This document shows positions 21,900-33,800 of a stretch of DNA of 37,286 nucleotides, one piece after another. Source of the stretch: a virus (lineage: Duplodnaviria; Heunggongvirae; Uroviricota; Caudoviricetes); IMG/VR virus record IMGVR_UViG_2869924733_000004; one strand, given 5' to 3'. The position numbers are program-made. How positions within the stretch are numbered: position 1 is the stretch's first letter; each line of letters begins with the position of its first letter.

Positions 21900-24800
21900 T
21901 GACCACTTCACTCAGTAAATCAGGCTCTTACCGACAAATTCCTGAGTTTACCGTCAGAACTCAGAAAATCACTGACATGGGACAGAGGAATGGAACTGGC
22001 CAGACATCTAGAATTTACTGTCAGCACCGGCGTTAAAGTTTACTTCTGCGATCCTCAGAGTCCTTGGCAGCGGGGAACAAATGAGAACACAAATGGGCTA
22101 ATTCGGCAGTACTTTCCTAAAAAGACATGTCTTGCCCAATATACTCAACATGAACTAGATCTGGTTGCTGCTCAGCTAAACAACAGACCGAGAAAGACAC
22201 TGAAGTTCAAAACACCGAAAGAGATAATTGAAAGGGGTGTTGCATTGACAGATTGAATCTACAACAGCGTATTTTGCACAGGAGTCGCTGAAAAATACGC
22301 GTTAATCGAACAATGGCGACAACAATTTCCCATTGAAGCGATGTGTCAGGTATTTGGTGTATCCAGGAGCGGTTATTACAACTGGGTACAGCATGAACCC
22401 TCAGACAGAAAACAAAGTGATGAGCGGCTAAAACTGGAGATTAAGGTGGCACATATCCGCACTCGCGAAACATATGGAACCCGGCGGCTCCAGACGGAGC
22501 TGGCAGAGAATGGCATCATCGTTGGTCGTGACCGACTGGCACGTCTTCGTAAGGAGCTAAGGCTACGCTGTAAGCAGAAACGCAAGTTCAGAGCGACTAC
22601 GAACCCGAACCACAATCTGCCAGTTGCGCCAAATATGCTGAACCAGACGTTCGCTCCTACAGCACCAAATCAGGTCTGGGTGGCGGACCTGACGTATGTT
22701 GCCACACAGGAGGGATGGTTGTACCTCGCTGGCATCAAAGATGTTTATACGTGCGAAATTGTCGGCTACGCCATGGGAGAGCGCATGACAAAAGAGCTGA
22801 CAGGTAAAGCCCTGTTTATGGCGCTCAGGAGCCAGCGCCCACCTGCCGGGCTAATCCACCACTCTGATCGAGGTTCACAGTACTGCGCATACGATTACCG
22901 GGTCATACAGGAGCAGTCTGGTCTGAAAACATCAATGTCGCGTAAAGGTAACTGTTACGACAACGCTCCGATGGAAAGCTTCTGGGGAACGCTGAAAAAT
23001 GAGAGCCTGAGCCACTATCGTTTTAATAACCGGGATGAAGCCATCTCAGTAATACGGGAATACATTGAGATTTTCTACAATCGTCAGCGTCGTCACTCTC
23101 GTCTGGGGAATATCTCCCCGGCAGCCTTCAGGGAAAAATATCATCAGATGGCTGCTTAAAAAAAGAACAAATGGTAGTGTCCGCTATTGCCAGTACACCT
23201 CAAATGTCCTTCTCGTAAACAAGTTTGCATTGCCCCCACTGAATGGCTCCTGTGACCTGTGCCAGATGCAGAAGCCCCATATAACTGATATCCAGGCATA
23301 CAGCCTTTTTTCGTGGGACCAGATACGCCAGCTTGCTGGCCGGGTTCAGGGTTATGCCGATGGCGGCAACATTGATGATAGCGTTCTGTGCGCTGGGCAG
23401 ATTTGCCCGTGCTGTGTCAGCCAGAAAGGCATTTTTCTGGAATTGCTGAATTGCAAACTGACTTTCCTTCGCCCATGTCAGCGTCGGTTCAGTTAATGCC
23501 TTGCAGAAAAAGCGCTCCTGCTGCTTAACAAATTCAACGATATCGAACATTTTTTTGGTCCTGAAAATCAGAAAGGACAGGGGGAGAATTTTCTCTCCCA
23601 TTCTTCTTCCGCCCGAGCATAGGCGATCGCTGAGATATAATCGTTGTACGCCTCTTCAGCTTTTTCGCCAGTGAGTGCCAGTTGGGCTTCTTTGGGTAAA
23701 AAAAGGCTGCTCATAAGCAATGGTTTATCGGGGAACATGCTGATAAGCTCCTGCGCCCGATCATCAATCCATTTATCCTTTTCATCCTGAATATGCTGAT
23801 TAACCCAGCGACGCTCCTCTATGCGGTCGCAGGTGAGGTATGCGTTCATGGCGGAACTCCTGATTCCGGTTAATGCATTAAATTAATTTGTCGGGAAAGC
23901 TGACAGACAGGGCAGTTACATTCTTCCTCCTGCTCTTTAGCGAAGAAATATGCAGCGGCCTGTAATGCGATGTCTTCTGAATGTTCCGCGATAAACATAA
24001 CATTGCCTTCCGTATCAATAACAGAAATAGCCTCATCAGGCAGGACGACAAAATAGGCGATGATTTTATCATCCATAAAAACTTCTCCCATTATCGTTTC
24101 TGCTGGCGTTATGACGTTTTTTACATTGATATTAATTTTTTGATTGAGCATGATATTTCCTTTCAGGCTGGTGAGATTAACGGTTGGCCTTTATGGTTCA
24201 GGTAAACTTCGATTGCATCTGAAATAATGCGGATTTTTTCAATCAGTGAATGTGCGTAAAGTGCATTATTAACGTTAGCTGACGCCATGTAATAACGCCC
24301 GTTGTAAAGAATTGCTGTACCGGGTTTAACGTCCTCGCGAGAAACTAATGCGGTTCCGTAGTGAGGTTTGAGCATGACAAATCCTCCGGTTAATTAATCC
24401 AGATATTTAATTTAATCCCCGATATGTGATCGGGGATGGGGTTAATTAAAGATTAACGTTGAAACCAAAGCGGGAAGACTTTTCCGATGTGCAGGAAATA
24501 TCCAGCAATTTACGGCGCATTTCTTCCGTCAGATGCTTGAAGGCGTTAAATTCGGCGACAGCCGCATCGACGTTATAGCCGTTACGACGTAATTCATTAA
24601 ATATGCGCATTGCAGGGCTTGGCATGTCGAATAAGACGGAGGTATCAAGCTGCAATGTATTTCTATCAACATAGTTCATCGTGGCATAGGGGTGATGCTC
24701 TGAAAACCACGATAAAGGGAAATTGATATTCATCGCAGGAGAAGACAGGGCCAGTTGTTTCTGTTCCCATAGTTGTTTTTCCATGCGATCGAATTCAGCA

Positions 24801-30800: not shown

Positions 30801-33800
30801 TAAACAGGGCTTTACCTGTCAGCTCTTTTGTCATGCGCTCTCCCATGGCGTAGCCGACAATTTCGCACGTATAAACATCTTTGATGCCAGCGAGGTACAA
30901 CCATCCCTCCTGTGTGGCAACATACGTCAGGTCCGCCACCCAGACCTGATTTGGTGCTGTAGGAGCGAACGTCTGGTTCAGCAGATTTGGCGCAACTGGC
31001 AGATTGTGGTTCGGGTTCGTAGTCGCTCTGAACTTGCGTTTCTGCTTACAGCGTAGCCTTAGCTCCTTACGAAGACGTGCCAGTCGGTCACGACCAACGA
31101 TGATGCCATTCTCTGCCAGCTCCGTCTGGAGCCGCCGGGTTCCATATGTTTCGCGAGTGCGGATATGTGCCACCTTAATCTCCAGTTTTAGCCGCTCATC
31201 ACTTTGTTTTCTGTCTGAGGGTTCATGCTGTACCCAGTTGTAATAACCGCTCCTGGATACACCAAATACCTGACACATCGCTTCAATGGGAAATTGTTGT
31301 CGCCATTGTTCGATTAACGCGTATTTTTCAGCGACTCCTGTGCAAAATACGCTGTTGTAGATTCAATCTGTCAATGCAACACCCCTTTCAATTATCTCTT
31401 TCGGTGTTTTGAACTTCAGTGTCTTTCTCGGTCTGTTGTTTAGCTGAGCAGCAACCAGATCTAGTTCATGTTGAGTATATTGGGCAAGACATGTCTTTTT
31501 AGGAAAGTACTGCCGAATTAGCCCATTTGTGTTCTCATTTGTTCCCCGCTGCCAAGGACTCTGAGGATCGCAGAAGTAAACTTTAACGCCGGTGCTGACA
31601 GTAAATTCTAGATGTCTGGCCAGTTCCATTCCTCTGTCCCATGTCAGTGATTTTCTGAGTTCTGACGGTAAACTCAGGAATTTGTCGGTAAGAGCCTGAT
31701 TTACTGAGACAGAATCTTTGCCCCTGAGTCTAAGGATGATCGTATAACGTGATTTTCGGTCTACAAGTGTGGCTATATGAGAGTTTTTTGTACCTGAGAC
31801 TAAATCGCCCTCCCAATGCCCCAGAGAGCGTCTGTTATCGATATTTCGGGAACGTTCGTGAATTGGTGTTCCGTTCACTATGTTAATCGTACCTCTTTCG
31901 CCTTTGCGGGTATGACGCCTGCCATGGCGAAGGCTATGCGACCGTCGCAGATGCTGTATATTCAGGTGGTGTAGCGCTTCACGGCTACGAAAGTACAGCG
32001 TTTTATAAATTGTCTCAGGTGATATTCGCAGCGTTTTTTGACGTGGTTTTGTTCGCCTTAACCATCCTGATATTTGCTCTGGAGACCATTTCATCTCCAG
32101 CTTTTCCAGAACAAGCTTTCGCAATGGTAAATTTTGATCCAGTAAGCACGGTTTTGGCCTTTTCGCCATTCTGTTGGCTCGGTTATTAGCATCAACAGCT
32201 TTGTAATAGCGTCTGCCCCGATTACGCTGAACTTCACGTGAGATCGTCGAAGGACTGCGATTCAGCGCAGTAGCTATCGCACGAATGCTCATTTTGGCTG
32301 ACAAACCAGCTCGTATCTCCTCGCGCTCAGACAGTGTCAGGTGAGCTACAGCCCGCTTACGCTCATGGGGTTTTATGCCGCCAGTATCCCTTAACATAGT
32401 GAAGATCGTTCCGGGTTTTGAACCCAGGATATTCGCTATTTCACTGAAGCCTGTTCCGTTCTTCCATAGTTCAAAAACAGAGGCTTTTTCCTCTGCTGTA
32501 AATGTTCGTCTCATTCAAAAAACCTCCGCAACCCCATGTTTTCACATAACTGTTGCGTTGACCAATTGAATCTACAGTTGCTTTTTTTAATATATCTCGC
32601 TCAAGGCGAGCTTCATTTAACGCCTTACGCAGTTGCAGAATTTCAGATTCCAGTTCAGCCACCGTGCGGGAACCAGGAGTACCGAGTCCTTTTCTGGCGG
32701 CGGTAACCCATTGTCCTAAAGTGCCTTCAGGAAGGGATAATCGGGAAGCGCCTTCACTGATCGAAAGTTGATTTTCAAGAACCGTTCTGACAGCTTCGGC
32801 TTTGAACTCTTTAGAGTAACGTTGGGTTTTTCTGCTCATTATTAGCTCCTTCTGATGCCATTCTATTTCAGGAAGGAGTGTCCGTTAAACTCAGGCTACC
32901 TCAATTTACGAGTCCAACGGTATTGACTGCGCCCCCACGCACAAATACAACCCATTCGTAGACAGGGGCGCACGCATTGGCGGTTATTGTGTCGTAAAAA
33001 CATCCGAAGGCGACTATCTGACCGAAGAGATGAGCAACAGGGAAATCGAGGTCATCAGGGCGTGCAGCAAAGCCGGAAATAACGGAGGAAGTAGCCCGTG
33101 GGATAGTTTCCCCGATGAAATGGCCAGAAAAGCCATTGTTAAGCGCGCCAGCAAATACTGGCCCCGTCGCGATCGCCTGGATACAGCTATCGACTACCTG
33201 AACACTCAGGCCGGTGAAGGTATCATCCTGAATGCTGATCACATCCCTGAGCGTGACGTCACTCCCGCATCAGATGAGATTATCAATGAGATCACTCAGG
33301 CAATCACCGAAATTAACAAGACATGGGATGACCTGCTTCCCTTATGTTCCAAAACATTCCGTCGCACGATTGCATCACATGAATATCTCAGTCAGGAAGA
33401 AGCTGTCAAAACGCTTGATTTTGTCAAAAAGAAAGCTGCCAGAAACAAGGCCACGGCGGAAGCGAAAATTCACGCCACCACGGAAAATAGCAGCGAGGCC
33501 GTGTCATGACACCAGAAATTATTCTCCAGCGAACTGGCGTGGATATTACCAGCCTCGACCAGGGCGATGATGGATGGCACAAGCTGAGACTCGGTGTTAT
33601 CACTGCTTCAGAAGTTCACAATGTGATAGCAAAGCCACGTTCCGGCAGCAAATGGCCTGATACAAAAATCTCATACTTCCACACCCTGCTGGCTGAAGTT
33701 TGTACCGGCGTGGCACCGGAAGTTAACGCTAAGTCGCTCGCATGGGGAAAGCAATACGAAGATGATGCCCGTGCCATCTTCGAATTTATCGCGGATGTTA

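Follow-up and report, generated by a model that had tools for sequence, protein, structure and literature searches.

Two short RecT-like open reading frames (ORFs) lie on opposite strands of the viral sequence IMGVR_UViG_2869924733_000004 (37,286 nucleotides; hereafter the window, meaning the whole stretch analyzed), each running directly into an end of the insertion sequence (IS) IS600. Are these two small genes or the halves of one recT gene, and if one, how did its halves come to face opposite ways? The recT locus sits in a defective lambdoid prophage dense with IS600, IS30, IS911, IS2-like and IS66-family elements; positions 13200-37286 of the window are 100.0% identical to GenBank CP027027.1 (loci L003 and L015; L numbers denote related loci throughout), a complete genome of the Shigella group, and PMC12817139 lists its sister genome CP026836.1 under S. 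boydii. We find that the two ORFs are halves of a single RecT-family gene and not a chance resemblance, and we are nearly certain that IS600 split this gene and that the block between two inverted copies of the element was itself inverted, as a sequence-only reading had proposed. Coordinates are collected in Table 1.

The joined gene carries the first part of this argument. Dropping one ATT and joining the halves in silico gave 951 nt in frame, encoding 316 amino acids (aa). The joined DNA matched intact genes annotated "RecT family recombinase" in one ungapped BLAST piece (100% coverage, 99.7% identity) in 143 E. coli genomes and many Stx-converting phages; its full-length annotated match is WP_000459721.1 (951/951 nt in one piece, 99.7%), and it differs from recT of E. 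coli ATCC 43889 at 3 nucleotides, with no further lesion. The Pfam RecT profile (PF03837, cut-off 24 bits) matched the joined protein with 86.9 bits in one contiguous stretch, residues 31-204 on profile positions 5-177 of 198, spanning the junction at residues 116/117, which is the check that the sequence-only reading had called for. Taken separately, the N-terminal half (recT-N) scored 23.7 bits (profile 5-87) and the C-terminal half (recT-C) 53.1 bits (profile 106-177). The expected partners of RecT stand on each side: gamL directly upstream of recT-N, and exo overlapping the recT-C stop.

The junctions carry the second part. On the minus strand recT-N ends in GAC ATT and passes directly into TGAGGTGTACTGGCAATAGCGGACAC, the IS600 right terminal repeat, and the TGA stop of this half (23202-23200) is IS600-derived. 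The last base of the repeat is 23202, one position away from the 23201 first assigned to it. The IS600 left end, ...GGCTACCTCA, finishes on the plus strand at 32903, exactly as first placed, and adjoins recT-C, which opens in frame with ATT TAC GAG TCC; the stop of recT-C (33507-33509) overlaps the exo start codon. The 9.3 kb first given as the distance between the halves holds for their inner edges, 23550 and 32904 (9,353 bp); the junctions themselves are 9,700 bp apart. Each junction in the window has a single ATT, and intact recT genes have one ATT at the same site; aligned to the intact arrangement of L014, the window from 23202 follows L014 from 9403 downward and the window from 32904 follows L014 from 9400 upward, an overlap of ATT plus one coincidental T. 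Clean IS600 insertions elsewhere have 3-bp duplications too, GAA at window copy 3 and TAC at the second IS600 of CP026836.1, and ATT is therefore the expected footprint of IS600.

IS600 termini (TGAGGT...) occur in the window at 23202, 30417, 32903, 3429 and 5915. The element is 1,264 bp long in its plain form in CP026836.1, and its 99.8-99.9% matches carry the RefSeq label "IS3-like element IS600 family transposase"; the element nested within it is labeled "IS30-like element IS30 family transposase" and has terminal repeats TGTAGATTCAAT... The sequence-only reading had IS600 at both recT breaks and IS600::IS30 at the second, and both assignments stand; the copy at the first break, which it took for a partial IS600, is also an IS600::IS30 composite, cut at 21910/21911 by the right end of IS911::IS30. 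About 997 E. coli RefSeq genomes have the complete 2,487-bp composite in one piece. A repeat finder reported copies 1 and 2 as the inverted repeat I1, with arms 21911-23202 and 30417-31708 (1,292 nt) and 7,214 bp between them; its identity of "100%" is a rounded value, as the IS600 parts of the two copies differ at two sites. Both sites lie in orfB (22341-23159 in copy 1, 30460-31278 in copy 2), and both differences are non-synonymous (L/M and F/S); the variants are peculiar to the truncated copy 1, apart from their presence in L026.

Relatives show what the locus looked like without these elements. The order in Stx phages and E. coli prophages is primase(-) helicase(-) ... cro(-) cI(+) ... 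Rha gamL recT exo(+) ... Ead/DUF551 ... xis int. The same prophage, with the same cI, hicAB and Rha (99.6-99.8% identity), lacks these IS copies in CP026875.1 (L014/L030) and in the drafts L021 and L022, and in L014, L021 and L022 the genes from helicase through gam-recT-exo are collinear. Relative to L014, window 23202-30419 is reversed (to 9403 down to 2189) and window 32904-34501 runs forward (to 9400 up to 10996). CP026836.1 has IS600 at the helicase end only, its ATT site is empty, and helicase...gam-recT-exo is collinear. The comparison with related genomes that had been called for thus returned the uninverted arrangement both without the elements and with the helicase-end copy.

The flanks of that one IS600 identify the rearrangement. 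In CP026836.1 the helicase-end element is plain; its right end lies at ...AAGTCAA/TGAGG, the same junction as in the window, with the helicase flank TTGACTTGATG..., and its left flank is AAGGACCGAAC..., on the DUF2737/DUF551 side. In L004 (PSSP01000001.1) and L006 (AKNA01000038.1), where the left copy is complete, the copy that meets recT-N and ATT at its right end bears the AAGGACCGAAC flank, and the copy that meets ATT and recT-C at its left end bears the helicase flank. The two flanks of one CP026836.1 element are thus on separate copies, each paired with a recT half, and the 7,214-bp block 23203-30416 has been inverted between two inverted copies; such a two-way swap of flanks is the hallmark that defines an inversion whose ends lie in two oppositely oriented IS copies, and it bears out the proposed inversion between oppositely oriented IS600 copies. 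The block holds recT-N, gamL, kilR, the isrK/C4 RNAs with Ash/Rha, hicAB, cI, cro, a cII-like gene, a 128-aa ORF and the helicase without its 3' end. The intact helicase is 506 aa in L021, and the junction of truncated helicase and IS600 is found in S. boydii CP026836.1 as well.

The outside flanks common to CP026836.1 (overlapping loci L013 and L025) and CP027027.1, namely DUF551...xis-int-mdtABC and IS911-221-aa ORF-resolvase-rutG, show which segment turned. Relative to them the gamL...cI...helicase block was turned, and the block of recT-C, exo and the 159-aa gene kept its orientation. The earlier description of recT-C, exo and the 159-aa gene as inverted holds for their orientation relative to gam and recT-N; on the chromosome it is the gam-to-helicase block that flipped, not exo.

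Table 1. Window coordinates of the split recT gene, the inverted block and the insertion sequences around them.
Feature	Position	Strand	Remarks
recT 5' half	23203..23550	-	116 codons, MFDIV...CKLVYEKDI; alignment to L014 9403 down to 9055, 99.6%
recT 3' half	32904..33509	+	codons 116/117-316 plus stop; alignment to L014 from 9400 upward, 99.8%
ATT target-site duplication, copy beside recT-N	23203..23205	-	AAT on + strand
ATT target-site duplication, copy beside recT-C	32904..32906	+	
gamL, host-nuclease inhibitor	23568..23849	-	PF28165 GamL on identical product in related loci; annotated gamL in L002
exo, YqaJ / lambda-exonuclease family	33506..34195	+	PF09588, E = 7e-28; annotated lambda exonuclease family in L002
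Inverted block	23203..30416		7,214 bp, exactly between I1 arms; reverse alignment to IS-free L014 9403 down to 2189, 99.6%
DEAD/DEAH helicase without about 20 C-terminal codons	28958..30416	+	Pfam; fused at ...AAGTCAA to IS600 right end (junction J2)
IS600::IS30 copy 1, remnant	21911..23202	+	1,292 bp: IS30 3' 353 bp (21911-22263) and IS600 right part (22264-23202)
IS600::IS30 copy 2	30417..32903	-	2,487 bp = 1,264 + 1,221 + 2; right end at helicase, left end at recT-C
IS30 inside copy 2	31356..32576	-	1,221 bp, 383-aa transposase; at end of IS600 orfA (frameshift region), 2-bp duplication GT
IS600::IS30 copy 3	3429..5915	-	clean insertion, duplication GAA, in IS66-family transposase gene; internal control for 3-bp duplication
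IS911::IS30	19439..21910	+	right end truncates IS600::IS30 copy 1; left end adjoins DUF551 gene
Second IS911::IS30	34887..37286	-	right boundary of recT-C/exo/159-aa block; continues past window end

How did the block turn? We suggest the following course. A lambdoid, Stx-phage-like prophage with the early-left module gamL-recT-exo would have carried one IS600 (ISa) at the 3' end of the helicase gene, 7.2 kb from the later break. A second IS600 (ISb), probably already with its IS30, would then have entered recT at codon 116 in the opposite orientation, duplicating ATT, and RecA-type homologous recombination between the inverted copies would have flipped window 23203-30416 to leave recT-N beside one hybrid copy and recT-C and exo beside the other. 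We favor this two-step version, insertion at ATT followed by homologous recombination between inverted copies, with moderate confidence. We infer both the order of events and the attribution of the inversion to homologous recombination and not to transposase. The recombination arms, 1.3-2.5 kb long and more than 99.8% identical, count in its favor; IS3-family elements normally give simple insertions by copy-out-paste-in; and at position 690 of the right part copy 1 has A in L004 and L026, as does the CP026836.1 ISa, and every copy 2 has T, the pattern that a crossover near the right end would leave, and as such a weak hint.

The chief competitor is a single event, which we consider possible but distinctly less probable: the helicase-end IS600, as a tandem IS-dimer or another replicative-type intermediate, attacks the recT ATT on the same molecule and at once yields a second inverted copy, an inverted 7.2 kb and one ATT per copy. 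Its predicted product matches the structure base for base: each copy keeps an old flank at one end, and the target duplication is split and inverted. Because both routes give the identical product, the product does not tell this event from insertion with later homologous recombination; here the sequence-only reading, right on inversion between inverted copies, had put a simple insertion before recombination, an order that we infer. The donor would have lain only 7.2 kb from its target, and IS2, IS3, IS150 and IS911, all of the IS3 family, form IS-dimers that can give inversions and deletions (PMC9333248). Set against this, IS3-family elements usually make simple insertions from a minicircle, the composite lacks a working transposase, and in recA+ Shigella inverted repeats of kilobase size commonly undergo homologous recombination; nor would the difference at position 690 be expected had the copies been born identical, though gene conversion could explain it. 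The specific form in which IS600 transposase supplied in trans acts in one step on a defective IS600(::IS30), for example through an IS-dimer and not by host recombination, we regard as unlikely; if true, the locus would preserve, as a natural "fossil", an intramolecular inversion driven by the transposase of an IS3-family element.

Several points weigh against insertion followed by homologous recombination. Lookups of the exact recT-N, exo and helicase-fusion products returned no uninverted intermediate (IS600 at ATT with collinear halves) among the long contigs, every long contig with the ATT insertion being inverted; this absence, which also speaks for a single step, is weak evidence because few long-read genomes exist. 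Single-nucleotide differences among nine IS600 copies are few (5 variable sites in the right part, 2 in the left) and show signs of homogenization, so that the crossover point cannot be fixed from them. ISa is plain in CP026836.1 and both copies in the window's lineage carry IS30, which demands extra steps, either IS30 insertion at a hot spot or gene conversion. Finally, the IS30 insertion blocks OrfAB synthesis by the composite, and the transposase for the ISb insertion must therefore have come in trans from another copy.

The 7.2-kb immunity/replication block may also still be changing orientation between the inverted copies in populations alive today. That the inversion is an assembly artefact, a repeat-rich region mis-joined over a true genome with a simple IS600 insertion, is very improbable: nested repeats of 1.2-2.5 kb are a classic cause of mis-assembly, yet the window arrangement is identical in order and orientation in at least seven independent assemblies, among them CP027027.1, PSSP01000001.1, UYIS01000022.1, AKNA01000038.1, AAMJ02000007.1 and AMJQ01000062.1, which rules mis-assembly out, and short-read drafts (L008-L010, L039 and L040) give a contig of about 7.3 kb limited exactly by recT-N and the helicase end, as it should be with IS600 on either side. 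An exact search of a collection of species-representative genomes gave no match to the recT-N/IS600 junction, probably because the collection includes few genomes of this lineage, or none. Least likely of all, and refuted by the ungapped join at 99.7% to single intact genes, is that the halves come from two different RecT-like genes or were split ancestrally without IS600, for which only the a priori possibility in mosaic prophages speaks: the break points match the IS600 termini and the 3-bp duplication to the base, the halves are contiguous within one protein, and relatives without IS600 at ATT have the gene contiguous and in the uninverted order, not split in the absence of the element.

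The recT event was not the first at this locus. We rejected the helicase-end IS600 as a simple insertion: its flanks are CAA and AAG, with no duplication, and the element therefore marks the junction of an older rearrangement. Compared with CP026875.1, CP026836.1 already has the segment from helicase to exo turned round with respect to DUF551-int, and the exo-distal break (window 34887 and 19439; L025 5993) lies inside an abc2-like (Anti-RecBCD_p2) gene, between exo and the DUF2737/DUF551 blocks. Taken with the non-duplicated flanks, these breaks indicate at least one rearrangement before the recT event. The other side of the older helicase-end event now carries IS911; on the uninterrupted copy in L032 (7947-8037) 89 bp separate the IS911 end from the IS600 left end, and those 89 bp are missing. 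The older rearrangement is only partly reconstructible, and the history has more than two steps. The inversion seen in the window incidentally restored the original orientation of the immunity block relative to int.

The IS30 elements have a history of their own. IS30 always lies, with a 2-bp GT, at the homologous frameshift-region spot (...TTAAAAAA(A/G)GC...) of both IS600 and IS911: in IS600 at window 4368-5588, 31356-32576 and 21911-22263, and in IS911 at 19774-20994 and 35803-37023, a comparison that also took in loci L004, L006, L015-L019 and L013. The two IS911 copies of the window hold it in different orientations, and so do different strains at one chromosomal locus. Since homologous recombination cannot flip an element in place, this variation indicates repeated insertion of IS30 at the hot spot, or transposase-mediated flipping. 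In CP026836.1 the IS600 and IS911 at those loci are plain, without IS30. We considered the identical IS30 in both copies as proof that the composite moved as a unit and rejected it, because with orientation varying by strain and plain elements in CP026836.1 repeated insertion at the hot spot is equally possible. Chimeric elements occur in relatives, IS600-right::IS30::IS911-left in L026 (5847-7067) and IS911-right::IS30::IS600-right in L018 (12298-13518), and show that embedded IS30 copies act as recombination substrates between different host ISs.

As judged from the sequence, the consequences of the recT event would be purely destructive: recT is predicted to be dead, exo and recT-C to be uncoupled from the gam/pL side, and the prophage to be further scrambled. 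Because the gene is physically split, annealing or recombineering activity is not expected. In the same prophage of related genomes recT has been inactivated three times independently, by a frameshift, by IS600 at TAC and by IS600::IS30 at ATT; the frameshift, an apparent 1-bp deletion, lies near nt 582 in L014, L021 and L022, and the TAC-site IS600 is L013 8387-9650. The helicase, cI and gamL genes of those genomes are broken too, which suggests general decay and not targeted loss.

That ISs disrupt genes, and that segments between inverted IS copies turn over, is textbook knowledge for Shigella genomes, and we found no paper on this specific locus in the literature; it is an ordinary case of insertion-sequence genome scrambling, with no new system or mechanism. 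As in other Shigella and E. coli inversions of this kind, opposite copies bound the segment, the flanks are exchanged and the target duplication of the younger copy is split; unlike the usual cases, this one is small (7.2 kb, within a defective prophage), its repeats are nested IS600::IS30 composites, and it returned an immunity/replication block to its earlier orientation after an older rearrangement. The module itself has the order and families (PF28165, PF03837, PF09588) of the gamL-recT-exo module of Stx-converting lambdoid phages, which is Red-like or RecET-like, and the joined recT has 99.7% nucleotide identity to the intact Stx2a phage gene; in contrast to that module, recT here is broken at codon 116, and exo lies apart from gam, physically and, we predict, in transcription, so that by its structure the module must be non-functional.

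Intramolecular replicative transposition, as by Tn3, Mu and IS26 or through the IS-dimer pathways of IS30, IS911 and IS2, gives the same end product. Unlike Tn3, Mu and IS26, IS600 belongs to the copy-out-paste-in IS3 family, and a role for transposase here is undecidable from sequence. The nested elements resemble the IS911 of E. coli K-12 interrupted by IS30A, where IS30 likewise sits in the homologous region of an IS3-family element and disrupts OrfAB production; here, by contrast, the host element is IS600, the window has two IS911::IS30 in addition, and IS30 orientation varies by copy and by strain.

For annotation, the two "RecT" fragments should be read as one IS-disrupted gene and the helicase as an IS-truncated gene in a rearranged defective prophage, not as separate small proteins. 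The locus offers four junction markers testable by polymerase chain reaction, DUF2737-flank/IS600-L, helicase/IS600-R, recT-N/ATT/IS600-R and IS600-L/ATT/recT-C, which separate the S. boydii/S. dysenteriae sub-lineage of the CP027027.1 type from the CP026836.1 and CP026875.1 types. It is also a compact and fully reconstructible example of nested IS elements dismantling the recombination module of a prophage.

Within the inverted block, Rfam matches to the C4 antisense RNA (25139-25226, minus strand) and isrK (25251-25327, minus) lie directly upstream of an Ash/Rha anti-repressor-like gene (24446-25243, minus) and form with it a P1/P7-type c4-ant immunity cassette; a hicAB toxin-antitoxin pair is at 25986-26581. 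Two further Rfam matches, the ALIL pseudoknot, a frameshift element of the IS3 family (17769-17885, plus), and sRNA-Xcc1 (14319-14402, minus), fall in the DUF551-to-int part. Elsewhere in the window an IS66-family transposase gene (2922-6875) is split by the IS600::IS30 at 3429-5915 and becomes a continuous 488-aa ORF when the insert is removed. A full-length ipaH-type effector gene (LRR_TTSS and NEL E3 ligase, 587 aa; 8606-10369, minus) stands beside the prophage integrase (10932-12005, minus). It is mdtABC that follows the integrase in CP026836.1 and CP026875.1, and the lineages therefore differ in the flank of the attachment site as well.

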